Positions 1 through 33,557 of a stretch of 64,000 nucleotides of DNA are shown in pieces. The notes under the pieces are model-generated. The model saw only the letters and a list, made by a program, of their open reading frames with translations, had not been told where the DNA came from and made no database searches. How positions within the stretch are numbered: position 1 is the first letter of the stretch; each line of letters starts with the position of its first letter. The translations under genes were made by a program, and so were the position numbers. Source of the DNA: Escherichia coli (GTDB lineage: Bacteria; Pseudomonadota; Gammaproteobacteria; Enterobacterales; Enterobacteriaceae); NCBI RefSeq assembly GCF_048403405.1, contig NZ_CP183131.1; one strand, 5' to 3'.

Positions 1-85
1 ATGCGCCTGGTAAGCAGAGTTTTTGAAATGTAAGGCCTTTGAATAAGACAAAAGGCTGCCTCATCGCTAACTTTGCAACAGTGCC
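1..85 (+). mobile_element. IS26: IS26, 3'-terminal 85 bp (partial, continues beyond window start)
   Basis: Bases 1-33 encode the Tnp26 C-terminus (MRLVSRVFEM, stop); terminal IR tttgcaacagtgcc ends at 85; same 52-bp stop-to-end spacing as the complete copies. Confidence 0.93.
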
Positions 86-1845
<1,760 letters not shown>

Positions 1846-1886
1846 AAAAGTGGGCGCTTAGCGCCCGCTTTTCTTCAGGAGTAATC

Positions 1887-2882
1887 ATGACTGATGCAGC
1901 TTTCTATCAACTTGGCCCACTGCGCGAGTATTTAGAAGATCCTACTGTTTTTGAAATTCGCATTAACTGCTTTCAGGAAGTTATCTGTGATACGTTCAGC
2001 GGCCGCAGGGTTGTGCAGAACGCGGCAATTACGGCAGATTTTATTAGGAACCTTGCTAAATCGTTGGTGAGCAGCAACAAGCTGACCATGCAGGCCATTA
2101 ATGACGTGATCCTGCCTGGCGGGATCAGGGGCGTTATCTGTCTGCCCCCTGCGGTGATTGACGGTACAACGGCCGTAGCGTTTCGTAAGGATTTGGCGGC
2201 CGATAAAAATCTGGAGCAGCTGACCAGCGAGGGGATTTTCAGTGACTGCCGGAAGATTACCGGCAGCAAGCAAAGCCTAACGGATGATGATTTTTTCCTT
2301 AAAGAGCTGCACAGCAGCGAAAAATGGCCCGCATTCCTGCAAACCGCCGTTGAGAAGAAACGCACTATCGTGATCTGCGGTGAAACCGGGTCGGGGAAAA
2401 CGGTACTCACGCGCGCGCTGTTAAAATCGCTACATAAAGACGAGCGTGTAATTATTTTAGAGGACGTTCACGAAGTCACGGTCGATCACGTTGTAGAAGC
2501 CGTTTATATGATGTACGGCGATGCAGGAAAGATCGGCCGCGTCAGCGCCACTGATGCCCTGCGAGCCTGTATGCGTCTGACACCGGGCCGTATCATCATG
2601 ACTGAGCTTAGGGATGATGCTGCGTGGGATTATCTTAAAGCACTTAATACCGGCCATCCAGGCGGTGTTATGTCAACGCACGCTAACTCTGCGCGCGATG
2701 CCTTTAACCGTATTGGGCTGCTTATCAAAGCGACCCCTATCGGCCGTATGCTCGATATGAGCGATATTATGCGAATGCTCTACTCCACCATTGACGTTGT
2801 GGTGCATATGGAAAAGCGGAAAATCAAAGAAATTTATTTTGACCCTGAATATAAAATGCAGTGTGTGAACGGGAGCCTGTAA
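1887..2882 (+). CDS. traG: T4SS VirB11-like ATPase (IncN/pKM101-type TraG)
   Basis: 331 aa; Walker A GETGSGKT and conserved VirB11 C-terminal region; sits at the end of the VirB8-11 order. Confidence 0.85.
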   Translation: MTDAAFYQLGPLREYLEDPTVFEIRINCFQEVICDTFSGRRVVQNAAITADFIRNLAKSLVSSNKLTMQAINDVILPGGIRGVICLPPAVIDGTTAVAFRKDLAADKNLEQLTSEGIFSDCRKITGSKQSLTDDDFFLKELHSSEKWPAFLQTAVEKKRTIVICGETGSGKTVLTRALLKSLHKDERVIILEDVHEVTVDHVVEAVYMMYGDAGKIGRVSATDALRACMRLTPGRIIMTELRDDAAWDYLKALNTGHPGGVMSTHANSARDAFNRIGLLIKATPIGRMLDMSDIMRMLYSTIDVVVHMEKRKIKEIYFDPEYKMQCVNGSL

Positions 2883-3415
2883 TGAAAAACTTAGCAACCT
2901 GGCTTCTGGCCGCAGCATTTACGACAGCCGCCCTGCCCGCCTTTGCGGTGGAACCATCCGTTCAGGTTGGCTACTCGCCTGAAGGAAGCGCCCGCGTTCT
3001 CGTCCTGAGCGCCATTGACTCCGCAAAAACCTCGATACGGATGATGGCTTATTCTTTTACCGCCCCGGATATTATGAAGGCACTGGTAGCAGCCAAAAAA
3101 CGGGGAGTTGATGTGAAAATCGTAATTGATGAAAGGGGCAATACGGGGCGCGCCAGCATTGCGGCCATGAACTACATAGCGAACAGCGGCATCCCTTTGC
3201 GTACTGACAGTGATTTCCCTATCCAGCATGACAAGGTGATCATCGTGGATAATGTGACCGTTGAAACTGGCAGCTTTAATTTCACCAAAGCGGCCGAAAC
3301 GAAAAACTCGGAGAATGCGGTGGTGATCTGGAACATGCCTAAGCTCGCTGAATCATTCCTCGAACACTGGCAAGACCGCTGGAATCGGGGGAGAGACTAC
3401 CGTTCCAGCTACTGA
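2882..3415 (+). CDS. nuc: Nuc, periplasmic phospholipase-D-family endonuclease (pKM101 Nuc-like)
   Basis: Signal peptide MKNLATWLLAAAFTTAALPAFA; HxK-type motif region (IQHDKVIIVD); matches pKM101 Nuc from memory; start taken at internal ATG 2882 rather than ORF-track 2861. Confidence 0.85.
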   Translation: MKNLATWLLAAAFTTAALPAFAVEPSVQVGYSPEGSARVLVLSAIDSAKTSIRMMAYSFTAPDIMKALVAAKKRGVDVKIVIDERGNTGRASIAAMNYIANSGIPLRTDSDFPIQHDKVIIVDNVTVETGSFNFTKAAETKNSENAVVIWNMPKLAESFLEHWQDRWNRGRDYRSSY

Positions 3416-6270: not shown

Positions 6271-8424
6271 ACCTTTTTGCTCCTCATCCGAAGTATCTTA
6301 CCTGAAATTCCCTCACTCGTTTACCGCTCAAGCCCCAATTTTAACTGCCGGTCCAGCCTAAACCGCTCTAATAAGGTTCGATTTGGCGGTAAAATCTCTA
6401 GCCTGATAGCTCGAGAGATACAAACTGCCCCACCGCCCCGTTTAAAAGTTGGCAGTGTTGAGCAGTGTTGGATTTGGGGTCGTCAGTCAAAGAGACGACT
6501 CTGTGATGGATCGAACAGGCTGGGAGTCAGTGGCGGCGCTCGTTCTGGTGGCAGCTCACGCTGCTTGGCGGCATTCGCCTTGGCTGTTTTCTGTTTCAGA
6601 TGCTTGAGAATCTGCTCAATGACCTTCGGATCTTCGATGCTGGCAATCACTTTGACGTGACCGCCGCAGTGTTCGCAGACTTCAATATCAATATTGAAGA
6701 CTCGCTTGAGGCGTTGCATCCAGGTCATGGCGCGGTGGCGCTCTGCAGGACTCTTGTCACGCCAGTTAGTATCGAGACCTTCCGATTTGTCGGGCTTCTT
6801 GCCCCGCTTGGCGGGTGTTACTTGAACTCGGTGTTTGCTGTTCGGTGCAAAGACGCCGTGGAAGCGTGTGAGGTTGACTCGCGGCTTAGGTACCAACGCA
6901 GCGAGTTTGGCGATGAAGTCCAGCGGCTCGAAGATCACATGGGTGGTGCCATTGCGGTACGGAGTTTTGAGCTCGTAACGCACCTGCCCATTGGCGGTTA
7001 ATGCCAGACGTTTTTCTGAAACCGCTGGCCGACTAATGTAGCGACACAAGCGCTCAAGCTTATCCCGCTGATGCGCTTCGGCCATCACACCGGCGTGTAG
7101 CGAGAAACCAGCATGGTTGGCTACTCGACTGCTTGAGTCGGCTTTATCCTCACGCCCTGGCAAGGTTTGCAGGGTGAAGACTTTGCGCCCTTGCTGGGGG
7201 CCGACGGCAATGCGATACGTAACCGAAGCACCATGTAATTGAGTCAGCGTATCGTCTTCGCCCTCTTCCAGTGTCAACCACGTATTCTCGGCATCACGCT
7301 CCAAAATCCCACGCTTTTCCATGCAGCGAGCGATGCGATGGCTGAGGGTGTGAGCGAGCGTATTCAGCTCATCGTAAGTGGGTGCCTTGACACGATGGAA
7401 GCGTTGCTTGCCATAGTCATCTTCGGCATAGACACCATCGAGAAACAGCATGTGGTAGTGGACATTGAGATTTAGCGCGGAGCCAAAGCGTTGGATAAGA
7501 GTCACTGAGCCAGTTTGTGCAGAGGCTTTGGTGTAACCGGCTTTTTTGATCAGATGAGTTGAGAGTGTACGATAGACGATACTCAAGACCTGGCCCATCA
7601 GCTGGGGATGGCGAGCCAGCAAAAAGCGTAGCTGGAAAGGAAAGCTGAGCACCCACTGGCGAATGGGCTCCTTGGGGAAGACTTCGTCTATCAGCAGCGC
7701 CGCACTCTCGGCCATCCGGCGGGCACCGCAGCTAGGGCAAAAGCCGCGTCGTTTACAGCTGAAGGCGACCAGACGCTCGTGATGACAATCCTCGCAGCGA
7801 ACCCGCATGAAACCATACTCCAGACGGCCACATTGGAGGAGGTCGTTGAATTCTTGTTGGATGTAGCGAGGCAGGTGTTGACCTTGGGCTTCGAGTGAGG
7901 CTTTGAAGGCTGGGTAGTGCTGCTCAACCAGCTGGTAGAGCAGCGTCTGGTCGGGTTGGTGGCGTTCGTAACCGTTTGTTTGAGTGGGCGATTGACTCGC
8001 CGTGGCGTTCCTTGCCAGCGACATGGGTATCCTCCGCTGATACTGTGGTTATGTACAGTATCAGCGGCTTGCGTTCAGACGTCCAGTCTGGCCCTAGACA
8101 TCGCTAAATGCTTAACCCGCAATAGCCCTCACGAGTTGTTATCAGCCACTACCGGTTGAGCGAGAAGGTTTTGGGTTCAGGGTGCTATTGCTCCACCAAT
8201 CACAATACTGAAGCCCCAACTGTTATCAGTTGGGGCTTTTTCTTGTCTGTTTGCGGCGGTTGCGTTTTATCGGTAGTCGTCGAGCTCTGCACCATCCCAC
8301 ATAAGAGCTTAACGGTGCGATCTTCAACGCCATCACACAAAACTTTCTTTTTCACGCACAGTCAACTTATTGGATGTTTTATTAACAACCCAAAAGGAGA
8401 TATTTAGCGGGCGGCCGGAAGGTG
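6271..8424 (-). mobile_element. ISCR1: ISCR1 (boundaries approximate)
   Basis: Contains orf513; located directly after sul1 and before qnrA1 as in complex class 1 integrons; ends not verified at nucleotide level. Confidence 0.65.
6483..8024 (-). CDS. orf513: ISCR1 rolling-circle transposase (Orf513)
   Basis: 513 aa, MSLARNATASQSPTQTNGYERHQPDQTLLYQLVEQHY…; IS91-like HUH transposase features. Confidence 0.9.
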   Translation of the reverse strand: MSLARNATASQSPTQTNGYERHQPDQTLLYQLVEQHYPAFKASLEAQGQHLPRYIQQEFNDLLQCGRLEYGFMRVRCEDCHHERLVAFSCKRRGFCPSCGARRMAESAALLIDEVFPKEPIRQWVLSFPFQLRFLLARHPQLMGQVLSIVYRTLSTHLIKKAGYTKASAQTGSVTLIQRFGSALNLNVHYHMLFLDGVYAEDDYGKQRFHRVKAPTYDELNTLAHTLSHRIARCMEKRGILERDAENTWLTLEEGEDDTLTQLHGASVTYRIAVGPQQGRKVFTLQTLPGREDKADSSSRVANHAGFSLHAGVMAEAHQRDKLERLCRYISRPAVSEKRLALTANGQVRYELKTPYRNGTTHVIFEPLDFIAKLAALVPKPRVNLTRFHGVFAPNSKHRVQVTPAKRGKKPDKSEGLDTNWRDKSPAERHRAMTWMQRLKRVFNIDIEVCEHCGGHVKVIASIEDPKVIEQILKHLKQKTAKANAAKQRELPPERAPPLTPSLFDPSQSRLFD

Positions 8425-10971: not shown

Positions 10972-11469
10972 TTAGCCGTTTCGACGCGCATAAACGGAGT
11001 GGGTGTACGGAATTACAGCTTGAATGGTTTCGGTTGAGACAAGCTCGAATTCTGTTTCGTTGAGCATTGGGAAGAAGGCGTCACCCTCGAAGGTTTGATG
11101 TACCTCAGATAGAAACACGCCGTGGGCGTGAGGTAGTGCCAGAGTGTATATCTCAGCTCCGCCCGCGACGTAGAGTTCATTGCCGAGTTCGGATGCCAAA
11201 GCGATAGCGTGCGACAGCGTTGAAACAACTACGCAGCCAGTGGCGCGGTAGTTAGCTTGGCGTGAGATTACCAATGTGTGACGGTTCGGTAGAGGCTTGC
11301 CGATAGACTCAAAGGTCTTTCGCCCCATGACAACGACTTTTCCCTCAGTGAGTCTGCGAAAAATCTTCTGCTCACCCGGAATTTTCCAGGGGATATTAGG
11401 ACCATTGCCAATAACCCGATTGGCTCCCATCGCAGCAACGAGATAAATGCGTACTGATTCCGAGTTCAT
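10972..11469 (-). CDS. dfrA12: Trimethoprim-resistant dihydrofolate reductase DfrA12
   Basis: 165 aa, MNSESVRIYLVAAMGANRVIGNGPNIPWKIPGEQKIFRRLTEGKVVVMGRKTFESIG…. Confidence 0.87.
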   Translation of the reverse strand: MNSESVRIYLVAAMGANRVIGNGPNIPWKIPGEQKIFRRLTEGKVVVMGRKTFESIGKPLPNRHTLVISRQANYRATGCVVVSTLSHAIALASELGNELYVAGGAEIYTLALPHAHGVFLSEVHQTFEGDAFFPMLNETEFELVSTETIQAVIPYTHSVYARRNG

Positions 11470-11540
11470 ATGGCTAACTTTGTTTTAGGGCGACTGCCCT
11501 GCTGCGTAACATCGTTGCTGCTCCATAACATCAAACATCG
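11470..11540 (-). other. attI1 integration site
   Basis: Canonical attI1 sequence (reverse complement …gccctaaaacaaagttagcc) abutting the first cassette. Confidence 0.7.
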
Positions 11541-12849: not shown

Positions 12850-13669
12850 GGCACTGTTGCAAAGTTAGCGATGAGGCAGCCTTTTGTCTTATTCAAAGGC
12901 CTTACATTTCAAAAACTCTGCTTACCAGGCGCATTTCGCCCAGGGGATCACCATAATAAAATGCTGAGGCCTGGCCTTTGCGTAGTGCACGCATCACCTC
13001 AATACCTTTGATGGTGGCGTAAGCCGTCTTCATGGATTTAAATCCCAGCGTGGCGCCGATTATCCGTTTCAGTTTGCCATGATCGCATTCAATCACGTTG
13101 TTCCGGTACTTAATCTGTCGGTGTTCAACGTCAGACGGGCACCGGCCTTCGCGTTTGAGCAGAGCAAGCGCGCGACCATAGGCGGGCGCTTTATCCGTGT
13201 TGATGAATCGCGGGATCTGCCACTTCTTCACGTTGTTGAGGATTTTACCCAGAAACCGGTATGCAGCTTTGCTGTTACGACGGGAGGAGAGATAAAAATC
13301 GACAGTGCGGCCCCGGCTGTCGACGGCCCGGTACAGATACGCCCAGCGGCCATTGACCTTCACGTAGGTTTCATCCATGTGCCACGGGCAAAGATCGGAA
13401 GGGTTACGCCAGTACCAGCGCAGCCGTTTTTCCATTTCAGGCGCATAACGCTGAACCCAGCGGTAAATCGTGGAGTGATCGACATTCACTCCGCGTTCAG
13501 CCAGCATCTCCTGCAGCTCACGGTAACTGATGCCGTATTTGCAGTACCAGCGTACGGCCCACAGAATGATGTCACGCTGAAAATGCCGGCCTTTGAATGG
13601 GTTCATGTGCAGCTCCATCAGCAAAAGGGGATGATAAGTTTATCACCACCGACTATTTGCAACAGTGCC
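12850..13669 (-). mobile_element. IS26: IS26, complete 820 bp (tnp26 12902-13606, minus strand)
   Basis: Terminal IRs at 12850-12863 and 13656-13669; identical Tnp26 ORF; inverted relative to the copy at the window start. Confidence 0.97.
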
Positions 13670-24928: not shown

Positions 24929-25279
24929 ATGTGGGTCATCGAGACAACCGACACCTTTGATGAGTGGTTCGATGCTCTGGATGATACCGATAGAGCAAAC
25001 GTGCTGGCTTCGATGATGGTGCTGCGAGATAGAGGCCCCATGCTGTCGAGGCCATACGCGGATACTGTTAACGGTTCATCCTACAGCAACATGAAAGAGC
25101 TTCGGGTCCAAAGCAAAGGAGATCCTATCAGAGCGTTCTTTGCGTTCGATCCAAAGCGTAAGGGGATTCTTCTCTGCGCCGGTAACAAGACCGGGGACGA
25201 GAAAAGGTTTTATGAAGTAATGATCCCAATTGCAGACCGTGAGTTTGCGGCGCACTTGGATAAATTGAAGAAGGAGTGA
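24929..25279 (+). CDS. higB: Type II toxin, RelE/HigB-like
   Basis: 116 aa; followed 4 bp later by an XRE-HTH antitoxin gene (toxin-first order typical of HigBA). Confidence 0.65.
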   Translation: MWVIETTDTFDEWFDALDDTDRANVLASMMVLRDRGPMLSRPYADTVNGSSYSNMKELRVQSKGDPIRAFFAFDPKRKGILLCAGNKTGDEKRFYEVMIPIADREFAAHLDKLKKE

Positions 25280-25283
25280 CGTT

Positions 25284-25586
25284 ATGGCAAGAACTCTTGA
25301 CCAAATGCTGGCAACAGAAAAGCCTGAGGTTGTTGCCAAAGCACAGAAAGCGGCCACTGAGATGTTACTGAACATCCACTTGGCAGAGCTTCGTGATCGC
25401 ATGAACCTTACCCAGGGGGAAATTGCTGCATCTCTGGGTGTGAGACAGCCGACAGTCTCCGAGATGGAAAAACCTGGACGAGATCTCAAGCTGTCGTCCA
25501 TTAAGCGGTACGTTGAGGCCTCCGGTGGCAAGCTACGCCTCGATGTTGAACTTCCGGACGGCACCCACTACGGCTTTGCCGTTTAA
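25284..25586 (+). CDS. higA: Type II antitoxin, XRE-family HTH (HigA-like)
   Basis: 100 aa; HTH LTQGEIAASLGVRQPTVSEMEK. Confidence 0.65.
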   Translation: MARTLDQMLATEKPEVVAKAQKAATEMLLNIHLAELRDRMNLTQGEIAASLGVRQPTVSEMEKPGRDLKLSSIKRYVEASGGKLRLDVELPDGTHYGFAV

Positions 25587-25612: not shown

Positions 25613-25906
25613 TTACTTCTCTTGCTCTTCTTCCAGCCGTTTTCGGTATATCTCTCCTGCACGTTCCCTGCCATCGTCGGTCAGCCTAAAGGCCAGCTTT
25701 AGAGAAGCATTCCGGTACTTGTTCAACAGGCCGTTCTCCACCAGCGTGTGGCATGACGTTCGGAAGTTCGTTCCATGAATACCGCTCTGGCGAGCTGAAT
25801 TGATCATCTCCAGTATTTTTACACCTGGTACAGGCTCGGCTTTTCCACCGGCCTCAATTGCGTATAGAATGAACAAAACGTCTTTTTGAGTTGACGACAA
25901 TCTCAT
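25613..25906 (-). CDS. Hypothetical protein
   Basis: 97-aa ORF. Confidence 0.35.
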   Translation of the reverse strand: MRLSSTQKDVLFILYAIEAGGKAEPVPGVKILEMINSARQSGIHGTNFRTSCHTLVENGLLNKYRNASLKLAFRLTDDGRERAGEIYRKRLEEEQEK

Positions 25907-25993
25907 CCCTTCCCCTTATTCATGTCTGATATGAATAAGGCTCCCACGAAGGAGCCTTATGTAAACCTTATTCATGTGTCACATGATTAAGAT

Positions 25994-26266
25994 CTAGTTC
26001 ACGGAGTCTTTCAACCCCTTACCAGCTTTGAACCCAGGAATGTTGGCCGCCGCGATCTGGATGTTCTCTCCAGTCTGGGGATTCCGCCCGGTTCGCGCTG
26101 CGCGTTCCTTAACGTGGAAAGTACCAAACCCAGTGAGCGCTACTGTCCCACCCGCTTTAAGCTCCTCTGTCACTGAGTTGATCAGCGCATTTACCGCAGC
26201 TTCGGCCTTTGCTTTGCTAATGTCAGCGTCTTCGGCCACTTTCATAATCAGTTCACTTTTGTTCAT
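25994..26266 (-). CDS. HU-family nucleoid-associated DNA-binding protein
   Basis: 90 aa, [67 protein letters not shown]…. Confidence 0.85.
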
Positions 26267-26323
26267 CGTTATTCCTGTTTGTTTTCTTGGTTACTGTTTA
26301 CACCTGCATACTCTGGGGTGTGG

Positions 26324-26920
26324 TTAGTGCTTTCTTCGCCACTCCCAAGGGGGAGTTCTCTCCGATTCCGGTAATGCCCAGAGACCTCGCTTATCGGCTT
26401 TGGCTTCGGCCTCCAGCTTGAACAGCTCCGGTGTTTTGGCGTACTGCCGGTACACCCACGCACTCCCAGAACGGACCATTTCGGCATTGACCCATTTGCC
26501 ATCGACATAAAGGTTGGCGACCAGACGGCCATAACGGTCTTTGTCGATTTGCTCGACTTTAATCATTCGACCAAACACCAGATCGGACAACGCCTGTTTC
26601 GCCTTTGAGCCGTAGGGTTGTTTCTTCTCTGGGGTGTCGATTTCCGCCAGCCTTACCCGGTACTGGATTTTGCCGCTCCGGCAATCTTTCCCGGAGTCAC
26701 AGCTTTGTTCAGTCAGGACCTTGACCGTATCACCGTCAGACACCCCCACAACCTTCGCAGTAAAGGTTTCTGCCCATACCTGAGGGGCCACCACCAGCAT
26801 GGCTACCAGGAACGCTGAAACCCCCGTATTTTTCACAAAACCTAACCTCATAATCACTCCATCCAAATTACTTTTTTTTCCCAGCCGGTAGAGCCTTGGC
26901 CCAACAGAGCCTTGTTTCAT
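26324..26920 (-). CDS. Secreted thermonuclease (staphylococcal-nuclease-like)
   Basis: Signal peptide then SNase-like core (VVGVSDGDTVKV…RLAEIDTPE…YGR…); true start probably the internal Met (MRLGFVKN…). Confidence 0.7.
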   Translation of the reverse strand: MKQGSVGPRLYRLGKKSNLDGVIMRLGFVKNTGVSAFLVAMLVVAPQVWAETFTAKVVGVSDGDTVKVLTEQSCDSGKDCRSGKIQYRVRLAEIDTPEKKQPYGSKAKQALSDLVFGRMIKVEQIDKDRYGRLVANLYVDGKWVNAEMVRSGSAWVYRQYAKTPELFKLEAEAKADKRGLWALPESERTPPWEWRRKH

Positions 26921-27081
26921 CCACCTTGCTGTCTACGATTCGACAGGCATCCCAGTTAAGAGATGACCAGTGAGCAATGGCAGAGGCCAACCAGTACCAC
27001 GGTGCCGTAAACACCGGCTGGCCCCCTTCCTTCGTTTTAAATACCTGGTATCGCATGTTGATCCTCCTGTTTGGGTGAGGC

Positions 27082-27984
27082 TTAGGCCTCGTAATAGAAA
27101 TTTTTTGTGTCCGGATAGGGTTTAAAGCAATGAGCCGTGGCTCTCCCCAGGGAAAGCACTGAAGCCTCAGCTTCCGGCGCTTCCTCAGTGTCTTCACGAA
27201 ATTCCCCGCCAAGTTGCTTCACCCATTCGGCAGCGAGCTGCACACCTTCATCAAAGGGAACTTTGTTCTTTTGAAGCACATCCAGATAGGAAAGCAGCAA
27301 GCAGTGAGGCGTAATGACGGCGGTGTTCCAATCGGTTGCGAGCCGTGTTTCGTCCATATCTGCATACCAGGCATCAACCTGATGTTTCAATCCGATCTCG
27401 GCCATCATGCCGTGCTTACCGGCGACCTTTCTGCCTTCCTCTACCACATCAACCGGGGCGTCCCAGTAGAGGACTCCCCCGTCCGCTTCTTGGGTCGCAC
27501 AGGTTGCACCTTGCGGCCAATGCCTCCGTTCCATAACGAGCTCGCAGAGCGTTTGGTTGCCTACAGGAGCCTTGTAGTCCTCATCGAGATTCACCACGAT
27601 GGTTTCCGGCTCCTGTTCAACCGGTGGCAGGTATCTGGCGACCAGAGGCATTGTCAAAATCACAGCCCCATCCATGTGAAAGGATGTTGGAGCCTTCACT
27701 ATTCGGTCCATTACCCAGCACCAAGCATGAAGCAACCGATCCTCTACCTTGTCGTCAGCCTCAATCTCTTGAACGAACTGGTTGAAACGAACCTGACTAT
27801 CCAGAAACAGGCCTGTGCTCTGACACTTATCGCTGATCGTATGAATGAGCTCCGCCTGCTCCAGAAGCATTTCTCGGGTGACTTCCTCCACATCACCAAA
27901 TGCGTCAAACAACTTTGTCATGTAGTCACGAATTTGCATGTTCTTCCCCCTCGGCATCGAATTGCTTTGCAAGCTCAGGATCAC
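27082..27984 (-). CDS. Hypothetical protein
   Basis: 300-aa ORF. Confidence 0.45.
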   Translation of the reverse strand: MILSLQSNSMPRGKNMQIRDYMTKLFDAFGDVEEVTREMLLEQAELIHTISDKCQSTGLFLDSQVRFNQFVQEIEADDKVEDRLLHAWCWVMDRIVKAPTSFHMDGAVILTMPLVARYLPPVEQEPETIVVNLDEDYKAPVGNQTLCELVMERRHWPQGATCATQEADGGVLYWDAPVDVVEEGRKVAGKHGMMAEIGLKHQVDAWYADMDETRLATDWNTAVITPHCLLLSYLDVLQKNKVPFDEGVQLAAEWVKQLGGEFREDTEEAPEAEASVLSLGRATAHCFKPYPDTKNFYYEA

Positions 27985-28156
27985 CGGCCCAGCGAAGGGC
28001 GTCTCCCATATGCGTGAAAGCGCGTTTATTGTTATCCTGCTTATTCACCCTGACCGGCGTCTTTTGGTCACGAGGCTGTAGTAGCCAGTACCCGGCCTCT
28101 TCCCTGATTAGTTCTGCGGCCACCAGAAAGCCGTTCTTCGTTGCAATGATCATCAT
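27926..28156 (-). CDS. Hypothetical small protein
   Basis: 76-aa ORF. Confidence 0.3.
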   Translation of the reverse strand: MMIIATKNGFLVAAELIREEAGYWLLQPRDQKTPVRVNKQDNNKRAFTHMGDALRWAGDPELAKQFDAEGEEHANS

Positions 28157-28701
28157 CAGCTCCCGTGGTTAAGCCAGTAGGCATAGATAGTGATGGCAAG
28201 GCCTCCCGCGAGCACAATGACTGCGGCGGTACGCTGGACCCACTTCGATGCACCAAACCGCGCCAGGTGTCTCCCCAGGAACTGGAAAGGTGCTGTCTTT
28301 CCGATAGCGCGAATCACCCAGGAGATTGCCAACAGAAGGATGGCTGTGGCCGGGTATATACCAACCCCTAAGAGATTCATCTCTCCGACCGCGAGCTGAT
28401 AGATGAATGCCAACAGCATGGCTACCGCAGTCAATACAGCTACAACCTTGGTCCCGTTTCGCCAGTCCCACGCTCGACGTGCGTCACTGGTAAAACTCAC
28501 CATCGAGACAAGGAACGGCATAAATGGCAGGTTCATGCTGGTGGGTTTATCCATGAATGCGTCAAGACCCACAAACATGGCCGTCATCACCACATAGAAC
28601 AACAGGGCGGGGACAAGCATGTCGCGTAAAGACCGAACCTGGTTGGCGTTCGCGTTTTGAGTATTCGTCGTCATTGTGTTTGCCCCTTCAACATTCCCCA
28701 T
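28156..28701 (-). CDS. Integral membrane protein
   Basis: 181 aa with 4-5 hydrophobic helices. Confidence 0.5.
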
Positions 28702-29117
28702 AGCTGACGGTGAAGATCAGCGATTACCTTGTACGTCCCCTTCACTGCTGGTTGCTCAAGGGTCTTGAGCATCCACAAAGCAATAAACAGGCTGGAAAGC
28801 AGTGCCACCACCAACTGGATGTTGTGGCTACTCAAATAGACGGCATAGCCGTTTAGGCAGGCACTCAATAGCAACCAGACCCTGGCCGTCATCAGCCCCC
28901 AGCGGTGATAGGTCACGAGCAGGTAGGCTGTTACGACAGAACAGAGTGTCATGGCACCAGAAGTGGCTAGGTAAACGACCCATGTACTGGCCTCGCCAGT
29001 GACGTAAGTGCCACCAACGGAGAAGGACAAGCCAAAGATCCAAATTGCTGCATTCCGGAGTAGGGCATCAACAATGATGTAACTAGCAGCGAGATTGATA
29101 ATTCCGCGTTTTAGCAT
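28671..29117 (-). CDS. Integral membrane protein
   Basis: 148 aa with 4 hydrophobic helices. Confidence 0.5.
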
Positions 29118-29476
29118 TACCCCCTCCCGTTATTCTGATACCTGCCCAGCTCAGCCCTGAGCCTATTAATTTCTTCCGTGGCTTCGGCCAACTGCTCCCG
29201 ATACTTCTTGAACTGCTGATATGAATGCCAGGACTGTCCTTTCGATACTGACTTCGTGATGGCGGCGACCTCATCCGGCGTCAACCGGGTGAGCTGCTCT
29301 TCCGGATAGATCAGGATGGTGTTGCTGTCCCAGTCAAAGCCTGCGTGAATAGCTTTCACCCCCACTGTAGGGGTTCCACCAATCCCACCTGGCTGGTGGA
29401 TGACAAGCCTCAAAGGCGCTGAGGCCTTGTGTGGATGAAGGCTATCGAGAGCCTCTTTTGCTTCTTGTAACTCCAT
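29117..29476 (-). CDS. Hypothetical protein
   Basis: 119-aa ORF; palindromic site 40 bp upstream. Confidence 0.4.
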
Positions 29477-29515
29477 AGATTCACCTCATAGTGAAATCAG
29501 GCCCCGGAGAGCCTG

Positions 29516-29534
29516 ACTTTCACATGTGAAAGTT
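29516..29534. promoter_or_regulatory. Palindromic operator-like site (copy 3 of 8)
   Basis: actttcacatgtgaaagtt. Confidence 0.5.
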
Positions 29535-29961
29535 AATTTGCCTTCTGCTGTCTGGCAGAAACCCTCAAGGCCAGCGCCTTTTGCATGTCGGGCTGCTGGA
29601 AACGCACCTTGGTCCGATCAGGCCAACTGTCCATTTCATTGCACCGCAGGGTGTCTATGGCCGCATCACGGTAAACCTGATAGAAGTCGGTTCCACCTAT
29701 GGAGTTAATTGCCATCATGGCGGCAAACATCGGGTTACTGTTCATGACGCTTGTAAGAGTCTCGGGGGTCATTGGGGTGTCGCATGACTTGTTGAGGGCA
29801 ACCAGCAGGTCATTACCAACCAGGGCACAGGCAGCGCATACCTGTTTGGTATCATCCAAGGCCTTCGCGTATTCGTTGTTTGGCTGAGGGACGCTTGAGC
29901 AAGCCGACAGGACAAGCAGCCCCGCCAGAAGGCATCCCAATTTAGTTGTAATCTTGATCAT
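29533..29961 (-). CDS. Putative lipoprotein
   Basis: Lipobox LLVLSAC at the end of the signal peptide. Confidence 0.55.
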   Translation of the reverse strand: MIKITTKLGCLLAGLLVLSACSSVPQPNNEYAKALDDTKQVCAACALVGNDLLVALNKSCDTPMTPETLTSVMNSNPMFAAMMAINSIGGTDFYQVYRDAAIDTLRCNEMDSWPDRTKVRFQQPDMQKALALRVSARQQKAN

Positions 29962-29974
29962 CAGTTCTCACTCC

Positions 29975-29994
29975 ACTTTCACATGTGAAAGTTT
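29975..29994. promoter_or_regulatory. Palindromic operator-like site (copy 4 of 8)
   Basis: actttcacatgtgaaagttt, 14 bp upstream of the lipoprotein start. Confidence 0.5.
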
Positions 29995-30855
29995 TTATTG
30001 GTTCGCGGAGTCGTCTTGTTGCGACTCAATCATCATTTTTCGCATCACGGCCATGATGGCTTGCGCCGGTTGAGCGCCGCCGAGAAGCTGGCTCTTGCCG
30101 GTATGGTTGTCCACTACAAAAGTGGCTGGTGTCCCGTTGACGCCATAGCTCTTGGCTTTCTGGATGTCAGCTTCAACCTTGTCTTCGTACTTTCCTGAGC
30201 CGAGGCACTCCCGGAACGCATCCAGATCAGCACCAACACCAGTGACAACAGAGGCCAGGTCAGCAACACCGCCACCATTCCCCTGGGTATGGTGGAAAAT
30301 GTCGTTAACGAAGACCCAGAAGCCACGGTTGCCCTTCTGCTCAGCAATACATTCAGCGGCCAGAGCTTCCTTGTGAGCTGCCGGGTTATGGAAATCGAGA
30401 GGCATGTGCTTCCACTGCCAATTCACATTGCCTTTGCTGGCATCCACAATTTGTTTGGGTGTGTCGTGGAATCGCTTGCAGAATGGGCACTCCATATCGG
30501 AGAACTCCACCAGCGTGAACCGAGCACCAAGGTCCCCGTAGATGTGTTTGCCTTCTTCGACCTTCTCAGGTGCTGCCTCGAACTGGGCATACTTCTGATC
30601 GATGTCGGCTTGTTGTTTCTGCGCGACAAACTTGTTGATGCTTTCGGCCACAGCAGCTTCAAACTCTGCCTTGCTTTTGAAGGTGACGCCTTCGGCATCC
30701 TTCACCTGGTTGACCGTAGACTTCACGTTGGCGATCTCTTGCGCCAGATCCTTCTCTTTCACGAACTGGTAGATCCCGAACCCGGTTCCTACGAGCCCCA
30801 AAAGAATGGCGGCAACAACCCCGAGACGTAGGGATTTGGTACTTTGTTCTGTCAT
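29995..30855 (-). CDS. Thioredoxin-fold thiol:disulfide oxidoreductase (DsbA/DsbC-like)
   Basis: N-terminal TM anchor then CPFC active-site motif. Confidence 0.75.
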   Translation of the reverse strand: MTEQSTKSLRLGVVAAILLGLVGTGFGIYQFVKEKDLAQEIANVKSTVNQVKDAEGVTFKSKAEFEAAVAESINKFVAQKQQADIDQKYAQFEAAPEKVEEGKHIYGDLGARFTLVEFSDMECPFCKRFHDTPKQIVDASKGNVNWQWKHMPLDFHNPAAHKEALAAECIAEQKGNRGFWVFVNDIFHHTQGNGGGVADLASVVTGVGADLDAFRECLGSGKYEDKVEADIQKAKSYGVNGTPATFVVDNHTGKSQLLGGAQPAQAIMAVMRKMMIESQQDDSANQ

Positions 30856-30870
30856 ATCAAACTGCTCCTA

Positions 30871-31848
30871 TCAGTAAACTTTCACAGCGCTGAGTTCTTG
30901 CACGAAGGAACTGGCTTCGAGCTTCGCTCGTTGGGTCAGTCGCCGGATGATGTCTTCGGTTGGTGTGTAGTCCACCAAGTTGCTCTGGTGGATGACGTCT
31001 CGCGCCACGGAGTTCAAACTACCCAGGCCATCAATCAGCCCAATGTCTTTGGCCTGCTCCCCGTTCCAGAGCAATCCAGAAAACACCTCTGGGTCGTCTT
31101 TCAGTCGATCACCCCGCCCAGCCTTCACTCGTTCGATGAACTGCTGGTGGGTTTTCGATAGAACGCCCTCCCAGAATTTCTTCATGTCAGAGGTAAGAGG
31201 GGAGAATGGGTCGAGAAGCGCTTTGTGCTCTCCGGAAGTGATAGCCCGGCGCTCGATGCCGAGCTTGTCCATCAAGCCGGTGAATCCAAACCCCGAGCTG
31301 ATGACGCCGATAGAACCGACAAGGCTGGCGCGGTCAGCATAGATTTCATCCGCAGCAGAGGCGATGTAGTAACCGCCAGAGGCACCGATGTCATCAATGA
31401 TGGCGTAGACCTTTTTCTCCGGATGAAGGGCTCGCTGCGCCTTCACTTCGTCATAAATCCGTCCTGCTTGAACCGGGCTACCGCCAGGGCTGTTTATGCG
31501 AAGCACGATAGCTTGTGAGTTCGGGTTGTCGAATGCAGCTTGGATGGACGGGATAAGGTGATCAGCATCGGCCAGAGTGCCAGCAGCAATTTCACCACGG
31601 ATGTTGATATACGCGGTGTGAGGGGCTCCTGCCTTGGCGCTTTGCCACGGCATCCCACCCGGATTAGATGCCAAAATGATGAAGCCGATCATGAGAAGCA
31701 CGAAACCAGATGCGCGAAGCACACGCAACATGGTCCGCCAGCGCCGGTCTTTCACCTGCTCTTTATGCAGGGTGAACATGTACTTCTCAATGAGTTCTTT
31801 CTCCCAGGGGATCTCTTTGTTTTCTGCCATTAGTTTTTCCTTTTGCAT
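30871..31848 (-). CDS. sppA: Signal peptide peptidase SppA-like (S49 family)
   Basis: 325 aa; TM anchor; conserved S49 region …IGASGGYYIA…. Confidence 0.75.
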   Translation of the reverse strand: MQKEKLMAENKEIPWEKELIEKYMFTLHKEQVKDRRWRTMLRVLRASGFVLLMIGFIILASNPGGMPWQSAKAGAPHTAYINIRGEIAAGTLADADHLIPSIQAAFDNPNSQAIVLRINSPGGSPVQAGRIYDEVKAQRALHPEKKVYAIIDDIGASGGYYIASAADEIYADRASLVGSIGVISSGFGFTGLMDKLGIERRAITSGEHKALLDPFSPLTSDMKKFWEGVLSKTHQQFIERVKAGRGDRLKDDPEVFSGLLWNGEQAKDIGLIDGLGSLNSVARDVIHQSNLVDYTPTEDIIRRLTQRAKLEASSFVQELSAVKVY

Positions 31849-32747
31849 GTTTCGATTATCAGTCCCCAGAACTCTTCATCAGCGCTATCAGCCCGGTCTT
31901 TGACTTTCTGGTAAACAAGGTTGGTGTTGAGCTGATGCTCACGACAGAACTGAGCAATGTTGCTGTAGGTCCTGTCCAGATAGGTGAAGGGTTTCCCTTT
32001 ACCTTTTTTCTTGGCGAGGATGAGCTTCCACTCATCATTGGAGAGTTTGTCTGCGGCCTTCCCGGTGTCCGCAATGCGCCTACGCACCGTTACCGGATCA
32101 AGTCCATGTGCTCTGGCTATGCTGGCAACGCAGTTGAACTTCCGACCGTCAATCATGACAGTAGGCAAATCACCAGCGGCAGCCTCCTTGAATCGGAAAC
32201 CTCTGTAACCTGGTTTGAAGATCCCAGGAGCAAGTTGCTCACGGAACTCGATTGCTTGTTCTGACCTGACAAACTTGCTGTCGATTTTGCCGAGCATGTA
32301 CTTAGCCCGAGCGATTACCTGGTAAAGCGTCTTCTCCAGGAGCATGGCGTCAGCAGCTCGACTCGGAAGACCTATGTCGTCTTCTTGCTCGATACCCAAC
32401 ATTTCTGCATGGCTGGAGCCTTCTGCATGTCGGAAACAGCCGTCGTACTCAAAAAGAAAGGAGGCCAAACCTCCTCTCAGCTTTGCTTTGAACCGGGTGT
32501 TGGCCGCGTTCTCTGGCGCTGGTGCCAGCTCGGACACTTCAAGCCCTAAATTTGCGGCCAACTTCCGCAGGTCTTCCTCTCCAATTCGGCATCCAGGCTG
32601 CATAACCTGCGCCAGAGCAGATTCATCAGCACATCCGCGTTCTTTCAGCTCAGCCAAGAGGTAGGGAACTCGTACTACCCCCATAAGCTCAAGCTCCCTG
32701 AATCGCGTGGACCACCAGCTCACAGAGTTTCCCGTACACAGGAGCAA
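31830..32747 (-). CDS. Hypothetical protein with possible C-terminal DNA-binding repeats
   Basis: 305-aa ORF; assignment weak. Confidence 0.4.
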   Translation of the reverse strand: MLLCTGNSVSWWSTRFRELELMGVVRVPYLLAELKERGCADESALAQVMQPGCRIGEEDLRKLAANLGLEVSELAPAPENAANTRFKAKLRGGLASFLFEYDGCFRHAEGSSHAEMLGIEQEDDIGLPSRAADAMLLEKTLYQVIARAKYMLGKIDSKFVRSEQAIEFREQLAPGIFKPGYRGFRFKEAAAGDLPTVMIDGRKFNCVASIARAHGLDPVTVRRRIADTGKAADKLSNDEWKLILAKKKGKGKPFTYLDRTYSNIAQFCREHQLNTNLVYQKVKDRADSADEEFWGLIIETCKRKN

Positions 32748-33072
32748 GGCAGAGTGAAGCCATCACCATGCCAAAGGCTTTCGATGGAGCCTCTTTGGCG
32801 AACTTGGTCAACCACGGCATCATGCCGCACAGAGCAGCAACCATAGCGCCAGCCACCCCCAGGGAAGGGAATGCCATCACTTGGGCCAGAATGAAGAAAC
32901 ACTGGGCGTATGCCGCATGGGTCATCGCCTTCTTATCTGCTGCCGTGAACTCCACGGCATCTACGCTTTTGACTTTTTCCATCACATTGTCCTCATGCAA
33001 CATCAGGTTTTCCGAAAAATTTCTCATACACTTCGAGGTCGAAGGCCAGCATGGTCTTTGCCGCCTTTTCAC
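32689..33072 (-). CDS. Hypothetical membrane protein
   Basis: 127-aa ORF, hydrophobic. Confidence 0.35.
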   Translation of the reverse strand: MKRRQRPCWPSTSKCMRNFSENLMLHEDNVMEKVKSVDAVEFTAADKKAMTHAAYAQCFFILAQVMAFPSLGVAGAMVAALCGMMPWLTKFAKEAPSKAFGMVMASLCLAPVYGKLCELVVHAIQGA

Positions 33073-33466
33073 TAAGCTGGTGGAGGCTAAGCATCTGAAC
33101 CTTGTCAGTGCCGGTCACTTGCAGATCCACCGCGAACCACGTCCCACCTTTGGTCACGGCCAGAACTTGCACCGCCCAGGGCTTATCCAGTCGTTCGGGC
33201 GGAGTGATCATGTTCGACACTTTGGCGACCGTCGCGGTTGAACCTACCCAGTGCTTGTCGAACGCAATGACGTTCAACGCTTCAAACGCATCCTTCGCAG
33301 CTTTAAACCGGCTCCGGACAGCATCTTGTTGCTTCCAAGCCATGAACTGGAGAAGGGTCATTCCACCAGCCATAAGGGTGAGAAAACTCAAGCCATTGGC
33401 GGCAGCTACGACCGTCGCTACCAAGGACCCCAACATGACGAAGCGGTTATGTTTAAGCTGGGCCAC
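32993..33466 (-). CDS. Hypothetical membrane protein
   Basis: 157-aa ORF with N-terminal hydrophobic helices. Confidence 0.4.
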   Translation of the reverse strand: MAQLKHNRFVMLGSLVATVVAAANGLSFLTLMAGGMTLLQFMAWKQQDAVRSRFKAAKDAFEALNVIAFDKHWVGSTATVAKVSNMITPPERLDKPWAVQVLAVTKGGTWFAVDLQVTGTDKVQMLSLHQLSEKAAKTMLAFDLEVYEKFFGKPDVA

Positions 33467-33557
33467 TATTCACCTCCTATACCAACCAGCGTACAGGACT
33501 TTTCAAAAATGCAACCCCGCCTAGCTGCCCAATTCGGGCAACCCTGATTCAATCCAG

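Follow-up and report, generated by a model that had tools for sequence, protein, structure and literature searches.

A predicted exported staphylococcal-nuclease-like protein encoded beside an HU-like protein in an AcaCD-dependent operon of an IncC plasmid

Introduction

Among the described systems closest to the nuclease of IncC plasmids that is considered here is nuclease A of Staphylococcus aureus (PDB 1SNC and variants), to which the IncC protein is 30-35% identical and with which it shares, on its predicted structure, the same fold. The two proteins have the same Ca2+ ligands and the same catalytic Arg/Glu/Arg set, and an N-terminal export signal is found in both, that of the IncC nuclease being a prediction. 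They differ in their destination, which is expected to be the periplasm for the IncC nuclease (Gram-negative host) but is the medium for nuclease A. Only the IncC nuclease has an insertion of 11-12 residues with a C-x5-C motif in the hairpin equivalent to residues 27-31 of staphylococcal nuclease (SNase), and it ends in a conserved C-terminal PPWEWRR tail, which SNase lacks.

ParB of RP4/RK2 is likewise a plasmid-encoded SNase homologue, which is assigned to an intracellular plasmid-stability operon and is said to have Ca2+-dependent nicking and exonuclease activity in vitro. In RP4, parB has parC on one side and parA, which encodes the resolvase, on the other, and is subject to autoregulation through ParA; the IncC gene, in contrast, has no resolvase neighbour (its flanks are vcrx023 and an HU-like gene) and is under AcaCD control. 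The IncC gene thus does not belong to an operon of the parCBA type with a parA resolvase and parC.

Nuc of pKM101 resembles the IncC nuclease in being small and exported and in having its gene on a resistance plasmid, next to those for conjugative type IV secretion, but it carries the HKD motif of the PLD family, has an unrelated fold, is metal-independent and is resistant to EDTA. We know of no requirement for it in transfer. Closer in sequence are the thermonucleases of IncF, IncK2/Z, IncX4 and IncHI2 plasmids and of pLPU83a, which are 39-43% identical to the IncC nuclease, of the same size and signal-bearing. Their genes have other neighbours and other regulators, and the cysteine loop and the operon context with S49 peptidase and DsbA-like genes are confined to the IncC-like subfamily. 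The thermonuclease gene of the rhizobial plasmid pLPU83a was found to be up-regulated together with tra/trb, and its function was left open (2026 study). Here we present a set of features for the nuclease gene and its HU-like neighbour in an IncC plasmid from Escherichia coli, together with an assessment of what the nuclease may do.

Locus and gene models

The window, i.e. the whole stretch of 64,000 nucleotides that was analysed, is part of an IncC (IncA/C2) plasmid, and the nuclease and HU-like genes are backbone genes of that plasmid. The ORF listing places two minus-strand ORFs within positions 25994-26920, one for the HU-like protein and one for the SNase-family nuclease. The coordinates of these genes and of the other features discussed below are summarized in Table 1.

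Table 1. Features of the nuclease locus and of the second nuclease gene in the window
Feature	Position	Strand	Details
PLD-family nuclease gene (pKM101/IncN Nuc), intact	2882-3415	+	PLDc_2, E=5e-26
GC-rich hairpin GGCUCC-uucgug-GGAGCC	25937-25958	-	36 nt after the HU stop codon
HU-beta-like DNABII gene	25994-26266	-	90 aa; vcrx025; WP_001043047.1
Nuclease gene	26324-26851	-	175 aa; vcrx024 of pVCR94; WP_001236377.1
Longest nuclease ORF	26324-26920	-	198 aa; 5' extension of 23 codons
Predicted Sec signal peptide of the nuclease, codons 1-27	26771-26851	-	MRLGFVKNTGVSAFLVAMLVVAPQVWA, then E
Small ORF vcrx023, directly upstream of the nuclease	26868-27056	-	62 aa; placed via the pVCR94 supplement
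Operon genes vcrx012-vcrx022, upstream of the nuclease	27082-33466	-	
Predicted lipoprotein gene	29533-29961	-	within the vcrx012-vcrx022 stretch
DsbA-like thioredoxin-fold protein gene	29995-30855	-	Pfam DSBA/Thioredoxin_4
S49 (SppA-like) peptidase gene	30871-31830	-	Pfam Peptidase_S49, 3e-35
AcaCD box core, perfect palindrome TGCCC-N5-GGGCA	33526-33540		TGCCCAATTCGGGCA; upstream of vcrx012

The nuclease gene almost certainly starts at the ATG at position 26851, because a GGAG lies 5 nt upstream of this codon, because the 23-codon extension of the longest ORF overlaps the 3' end of the small ORF at 26868-27056, because RefSeq records annotate the 528-bp form without the extension and the orthologues from IncA and Aeromonas have their start at the matching position, and because the signal peptide is N-terminal only in the 175-aa form. 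The 198-aa ORF was rejected as the true product on the same grounds. An earlier note, made from the sequence alone, had read the region as a plasmid-encoded, secreted SNase-like nuclease starting at 26920, beside an HU-like protein. Both ORFs exist as stated, on the minus strand, and on the evidence given in the following sections the same holds for the SNase-like family of the nuclease, its export (as a prediction), its HU-like neighbour and its location on a plasmid; only the start is moved. The note's suggestion of a part in the processing of extracellular or incoming DNA, or in biofilm, was a hedged one and keeps that standing.

Family, active site and fold of the nuclease

The nuclease matches the Pfam SNase profile PF00565 over positions 1-106 of 107 (E=5e-28; 98.1 bits, with a cut-off of 21), and a HMMER comparison with staphylococcal nuclease from PDB gave an E-value of about 6e-12. 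Narrower names were not adopted, the scores for the NCBIfam families EcnA (53 bits) and NucI (31 bits) lying below the respective cut-offs of 180 and 250. For residue-level comparison the nuclease was aligned using MAFFT with S. aureus nuclease A and 13 homologues of 51-90% identity (15 sequences in total); the SNase residue numbers used are those that we take to be the nuclease A numbering. Invariant in all 15 sequences were D39-G40-D41-T42 (SNase 19-22), R67 (R35), D72 (D40), P74-E75 (P42-E43), Y107 (Y85) and R109 (R87), whereas T73 (SNase T41) was kept in most of them but not all. The Ca2+ ligands D21, D40 and T41 and the catalytic residues R35, E43 and R87 are therefore all matched in the plasmid protein, by D41, D72 and T73 and by R67, E75 and R109, respectively. 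The HMMER alignment agrees on the placement of these residues but disagrees with MAFFT around SNase Tyr113/Tyr115, where the alignment is ambiguous. The earlier note had named a lack of the catalytic residues on alignment as one refutation of its reading, and the alignment showed all of them intact.

An AlphaFold2 (AF2) model of the nuclease, computed from the same alignment, has a mean pLDDT of 89.4, with low confidence only for residues 1-30, and contains the OB-fold barrel and the three helices of the SNase family. When the model was compared with PDB using Foldseek, SNase crystal structures were the only entries among the best 50 matches listed, with E-values of about 2e-11, TM-scores of up to about 0.83 (normalised by the target) and identities of 30-35%. 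On sequence and model the protein is a member of the SNase family with an intact active site and the predicted SNase fold. An extra loop that joins strands 2 and 3 and carries two cysteines, C51-x5-C57, marks the close subfamily, in which the cysteine pair is kept.

Pairwise Nei-Gojobori estimates, calculated for the nuclease and the HU gene from pairs with dS values of 0.07-0.7, gave dN/dS ratios of 0.06-0.13 for the nuclease across the IncC types and IncA, and of 0.08-0.15 for the HU gene. The low ratios indicate that both genes are under purifying selection.

Predicted export of the nuclease

The N-terminus of the nuclease reads MRLGFVKNTG-VSAFLVAMLVVA-PQVWA, followed by ETF, and by inspection and hydropathy has the n-h-c layout of a signal peptide: the n-region is basic, the hydrophobic core is 12 residues long, and V-W-A stands at positions -3 to -1. 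The Kyte-Doolittle hydrophobic segment covers residues 3-21 (mean 1.78), and inspection of the N-terminal sequence revealed no lipobox. In the aligned homologues of 51-90% identity the N-terminus is hydrophobic as well, and small residues precede the conserved start of the mature protein. Many more distant relatives carry a C-terminal Excalibur domain (PF05901), an extracellular Ca2+-binding module. Export is also favoured by the cysteine pair of the close subfamily and by the DsbA-like and S49 peptidase genes that recur near the nuclease in independent elements. From the N-terminal layout, the hydropathy and the N-termini of the homologues we infer that the nuclease is exported by way of a Sec signal peptide and cleaved at the predicted site.

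The HU-like protein

The product of the neighbouring gene matches the Pfam profile Bac_DNA_binding (PF00216) over its full length (E=1e-34, 119 bits) and has 70% identity with E. coli HU-beta from end to end, both proteins consisting of 90 residues. The DNA-binding beta-arm segment is identical in the two, including RNPQTG and the intercalating proline. As the score against the NCBIfam HU-beta family NF007945 (138.1 bits) is under the equivalog cut-off of 157, the protein is, on its sequence, a paralogue within the HU family and not the orthologue of chromosomal HupB. A hydropathy scan detected no signal peptide in it. Unlike E. coli HU-beta, which is constitutive, the plasmid gene depends on AcaCD for its expression. 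Deletion of vcrx025 left the transfer frequency unchanged (Carraro 2014, PMC4207636).

Operon structure and regulation by AcaCD

In IncC plasmids the nuclease gene comes last but one in the vcrx012-vcrx025 operon, which is 6.7 kb long, ends in the nuclease and HU genes and has an AcaCD box in front of it. The vcrx numbering on the window was cross-checked by the sizes of vcrx018 and vcrx019. A hydrophobic-segment scan found transmembrane-like or signal-like hydrophobic segments in seven of the 11 products of vcrx012-vcrx022, several of which are predicted multi-pass membrane proteins.

The sequence TGCCC-N5-GGGCA, which we take from the published logo to be the AcaCD core, has two exact matches in the window, one of which is the box upstream of vcrx012. 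The box sits at the offset expected from the ChIP-exo motif of pVCR94 (6466-6494, with vcrx024 at 13160) and likely drives the transcription of the nuclease and HU genes. For pVCR94, an operon vcrx008-vcrx026 was predicted, with an AcaCD site and a transcription start before vcrx012 (Carraro 2014, PMC4207636). The normalised RNA-seq values reported in the same study, which we read as wild type, acaCD deletion, and deletion with induced AcaDC, are 322 / 1 / 2999 for vcrx024 (nuclease), 112 / 0 / 253 for vcrx025 (HU-like) and 0 / 2 / 12 for vcrx026. The operon position of the nuclease gene and its dependence on AcaCD are thus established by the present data and by that study, the expression data having been obtained with pVCR94, which is another molecule than the plasmid of the window.

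In the pVCR94 data the transcript climbs about 7-fold from vcrx022 to vcrx024. A local AcaCD box or promoter as the cause of this rise was considered and rejected: there is no second TGCCC-N5-GGGCA within several kb of the nuclease gene, and no consensus sigma-70 site was found on the minus strand near it. Downstream of the HU gene, the segment 25890-26010 of the minus strand folds as RNA with -38.7 kcal/mol (z = -4.1) and contains a GC-rich hairpin (Table 1). A simple terminator scan did not call the hairpin, whose U-tail is weak. The fall of the published RNA-seq values from 112/253 at vcrx025 to 0/12 at vcrx026 coincides with it, and the hairpin likely marks the end of the operon as a candidate terminator. 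An Rfam scan of the whole window yielded nothing near the nuclease and HU genes, its single feature being an integron aminoglycoside leader/attI at 11446-11524.

Plasmid context and distribution

The 2-kb stretch around the two genes matched 1056 PLSDB records, many of them at 100% identity, and the records that were inspected among these were typed as IncC or IncA, MOBH and MPF_F. The nuclease/HU pair was found in 1086 PLSDB plasmid records, with an identity of at least 99% in 754 records, of 90-95% in 278 (including a second IncC sequence type and IncA) and of 60-80% in 35, the last group including an untyped MOBH/MPF_F plasmid of Aeromonas caviae with the same gene pair. The annotations in PLSDB are 'thermonuclease family protein' and 'HU family DNA-binding protein'.

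Beyond these plasmids the neighbourhood changes. Homologues of 54-59% identity on metagenomic and genomic plasmid-like contigs lie near genes for an S49 peptidase and a DsbA-like protein, and a DsbA gene is also found upstream of the nuclease in the Aeromonas plasmid. A homologue of 63% identity has neither of the two partners. As S49 and DsbA-like genes recur with the homologues, the recurrent partners of the subfamily are these two envelope-maturation genes. HU as a conserved partner of the nuclease was considered and rejected, as no HU neighbour was present in the contexts sampled at 54-63% identity; only in the plasmids of the IncA/IncC/Aeromonas group does HU adjoin the nuclease.

When the mature nuclease was compared by tblastn with 72,556 plasmid records, at least 5000 of them matched, and 83% of these are conjugative. 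In the contexts sampled, and likewise in pLPU83a, the SNase gene lies within or next to the transfer genes. The gene order in IncF is traX-finO-SNase-hha-repA. In IncX4 and in a Citrobacter MPF_T plasmid the SNase gene follows coupling-protein genes (in IncX4 it lies between taxB and topB), in IncK2/Z it is found beside trbA and a DsbC-family gene, and in a MOBC/MPF_T plasmid in or beside the transfer genes.

SNase genes lie directly upstream of genes for nucleoid proteins in three settings, namely HU in the IncA/IncC/Aeromonas group, Hha in IncF and H-NS in an Acinetobacter MPF_F plasmid. These correspond to three of 16 sampled plasmid lineages, a small and non-systematic sample in which the adjacency looks more frequent than expected by chance. 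A recurrent module on conjugative plasmids that consists of an SNase gene and a nucleoid-protein gene is nonetheless unlikely. If it existed, this would imply a functional coupling that nobody has described, possibly the discrimination of protein-coated from naked DNA or a remodelling of extracellular DNA by the two proteins together during mating.

The second nuclease

The earlier note had also pointed to a second, unrelated exported nuclease of IncN origin in the window. Its identity holds: the product has the PLDc_2 domain and is identical in 153 of 155 residues to the crystallised Nuc of pKM101 (PDB 1BYR). The gene ends a truncated virB9-virB10-virB11-nuc fragment, after which IS26, macrolide-resistance genes and a class 1 integron follow. 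In a related plasmid the virB9-nuc fragment is oriented oppositely relative to the backbone, which suggests an IS26-mediated inversion. The two nucleases do not form one system, because the PLD nuc lies in a truncated fragment at the side of IS26 and the SNase gene in the IncC backbone. The PLD nuc is a passenger remnant outside this backbone and no functional partner of the SNase-like nuclease.

Function of the nuclease and alternative explanations

We consider it highly probable that the gene encodes an exported, Ca2+-dependent, non-specific nuclease of the SNase type, which is made only when AcaCD has switched conjugation on and which belongs to an envelope-directed operon. The signal peptide of 27 residues would be cleaved and the mature protein of roughly 148 residues would fold in the periplasm, where the C-x5-C loop (Cys51, Cys57) would probably be closed by a disulfide, a step that the DsbA-like protein of the operon may assist. 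The enzyme would then degrade DNA or RNA outside the cytoplasm, and it is expected to be sugar-non-specific. Because the gene lies in an AcaCD-activated operon, the nuclease would be present only in cells in which transfer is switched on, together with mostly membrane or exported proteins. The co-transcribed HU-like protein would be a paralogue of HU-beta that associates with the nucleoid in the cytoplasm and that transfer does not require. Candidate benefits to the plasmid are that nucleic acid in the periplasm or the surroundings of mating cells would be cleared, or that the uptake of competing DNA would be limited. The Ca2+ dependence, the disulfide, the substrate and the benefit are features that we infer. 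No enzymatic or localisation report on the IncC nuclease was found in the searchable literature, and no mention of vcrx024 by name in the literature searched; the nuclease is not discussed in Durand 2021, in Rivard 2024 or in the I-complex TraDIS papers.

Since RP4 ParB is assigned intracellularly, membership of the SNase family fixes by itself neither the compartment nor the role, and the IncC nuclease might act within the cell on its own plasmid, in multimer resolution or stable inheritance. In keeping with such a role, one GenBank record labels the exact gene 'chromosome partitioning protein ParB', RP4 parB from the same protein family is listed as 'Nuclease' in the parCBA multimer-resolution operon, a Moraxella plasmid carries a homologue beside a divergent serine recombinase, a metagenomic plasmid carries one after parA-parB(KorB), and in IncC the locus is closely followed by a toxin-antitoxin pair. 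However, no recombinase is encoded within the IncC operon or beside the nuclease, so that the adjacent resolvase is missing; the nuclease has a predicted N-terminal signal peptide; the rest of the operon is envelope-directed; and expression is essentially zero without AcaCD, which fits a transfer-linked rather than a housekeeping stability function. We therefore regard an intracellular stability role as quite unlikely. An extracytoplasmic barrier, in which the periplasmic nuclease destroys incoming conjugative, transforming or phage DNA and guards the niche of the resident plasmid, would agree with the predicted location, with the strong conservation of the gene and with the plasmid family being common in Vibrio, Aeromonas and Shewanella, and some Vibrio species are naturally transformable. 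The requirement for AcaCD would, however, leave most plasmid-bearing cells unprotected, and the nine candidates of the 2024 TraDIS screen for IncC exclusion factors included vcrx018 and vcrx019 but not vcrx024. In that study the deletion of vcrx018/vcrx019 had no effect, and eexC and sfx accounted for all exclusion. A barrier of this kind is accordingly unlikely.

It is very unlikely that the nuclease and the HU-like protein cooperate, for instance with HU as a scaffold for extracellular DNA that the nuclease remodels, or with the nucleoid protein as a shield of DNA against the nuclease. The two genes are adjacent and co-transcribed, the pair is kept at down to 71% DNA identity in the Aeromonas plasmid, and Hha (IncF) and H-NS (Acinetobacter plasmid) are encoded immediately downstream of SNase homologues. 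Yet the absence of a signal peptide from HU predicts different compartments for the two proteins, homologues outside the IncA/IncC/Aeromonas group (54-63% identity) have no nucleoid-protein neighbour, nor have 13 of the 16 sampled lineages, and deletion of the HU gene did not affect transfer. Hha is not known to bind DNA by itself. The remaining alternative, a decaying or non-functional passenger gene, could draw on the lack of phenotype reports and on one IncU plasmid with only a truncated copy, but it is effectively refuted by the selection analysis (dN/dS of 0.06-0.13 at dS 0.4-0.7). The gene is, in addition, intact in about 1000 plasmids and strongly expressed when AcaCD is present, and D39/D41, R67, D72, E75, Y107 and R109 are invariant, T73 being kept in most sequences. 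Its chance of being correct is negligible.

Significance

The nuclease/HU locus is already annotated and numbered vcrx024/vcrx025, with its AcaCD-dependent expression published, and as such it adds nothing to what can be found in databases and in the papers on pVCR94. Mildly new is only the occurrence of three families of nucleoid proteins downstream of SNase genes in three unrelated lineages. IncC plasmids are among the main vehicles of multidrug resistance. A predicted exported nuclease belongs to their backbone, where it is under strong purifying selection and is expressed only when the transfer machinery is. No assigned biological role was found in the literature searched for the plasmid SNase homologues, which occur in at least 5000 plasmids. 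Should these nucleases act in mating, in the exclusion of competing DNA or in the turnover of biofilm DNA, this would be a general feature of plasmid biology.

Gene neighbourhood of the SNase homologues

In the sampled contexts, a gene for a nucleoid-associated protein lies immediately 3' of an SNase-like gene in three unrelated plasmid lineages, and this protein belongs to a different family in each of them (HU, Hha or H-NS). The SNase gene is without a nucleoid-protein neighbour in 13 further sampled plasmid lineages. On an IncK2/Z (I-complex) plasmid, trbA and a DsbC-family gene are located directly 3' of a thermonuclease-family gene; this locus (L028) is a second instance, in a transfer region, of an SNase homologue adjoining a disulfide-isomerase gene.

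Coordinates of the features discussed (L012, L016 and L028 are loci on other plasmids)
Feature	Location	Strand	Plasmid
SNase-HU pair	window 25994-26851		IncA/IncC/Aeromonas plasmids
SNase-Hha pair	L012 3935-4651		IncF
SNase-H-NS pair	L016 2932-3800		Acinetobacter MOBF/MPF_F plasmid
Thermonuclease-family gene, trbA, DsbC-family gene	L028 1935-4393		IncK2/Z (I-complex)
Genes compared for the transcript rise (pVCR94 vcrx022-024)	window 26868-27939 vs 26324-26851		
(C/T)ATGAATAAGG copies	window 25914-25976		
vcrx026 ORF, 97 aa	window 25613-25906	-	
Gp49/HigB-like toxin gene (vcrx028) and XRE/HTH antitoxin gene (vcrx027)	window 24929-25586	+	
Truncated IncN/pKM101-type fragment, virB9-virB10-virB11-nuc	window 1-3415	+	

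The fragment that carries the second nuclease gene, nuc, adjoins IS26 and a resistance island with mph(A), chrA, sul1, aadA2, dfrA12 and intI1. Its orientation relative to the IncC backbone is inverted in the window compared with plasmid NZ_CP023724.1.

Divergence and transcription

Between two IncC sequence types (the window and locus L011), synonymous divergence amounts to 0.42 for the nuclease gene and only 0.065 for the adjoining HU gene, a difference that suggests a recombination boundary between or inside the two genes.

RNA-seq values reported for pVCR94 under AcaCD induction rise from 399 for vcrx022 through 946 for vcrx023 to 2999 for the nuclease gene vcrx024, all three being about 0 without AcaCD (Carraro 2014). 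Neither an AcaCD box nor a consensus promoter was found near these genes in the window. The rise could stem from a processing or stability effect, or from an unrecognised promoter.

Annotation of vcrx026 and adjacent genes

In many RefSeq records vcrx026 is named 'chromosome segregation protein ParM'. Its product has no Pfam or NCBIfam match and is much too short to be an actin-like ParM; the label is probably a propagated misannotation. Family support was likewise not found for the names of two products of the same operon, 'nitrite reductase' (172 aa) and 'Fe3+-siderophore ABC transporter permease' (148 aa). Just past vcrx026, on the opposite strand, are the toxin-antitoxin genes vcrx028 and vcrx027; a deletion of vcrx027 was unobtainable in Carraro 2014.

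From the stop codon of the HU gene to the start of vcrx026, the motif (C/T)ATGAATAAGG occurs three times in 63 bp, as two direct copies and one inverted copy on either side of a hairpin, and the rest of the 64-kb window contains a single additional near-match. The array resembles an operator to which a DNA-binding protein would bind, and the vcrx026 product itself may be that protein.
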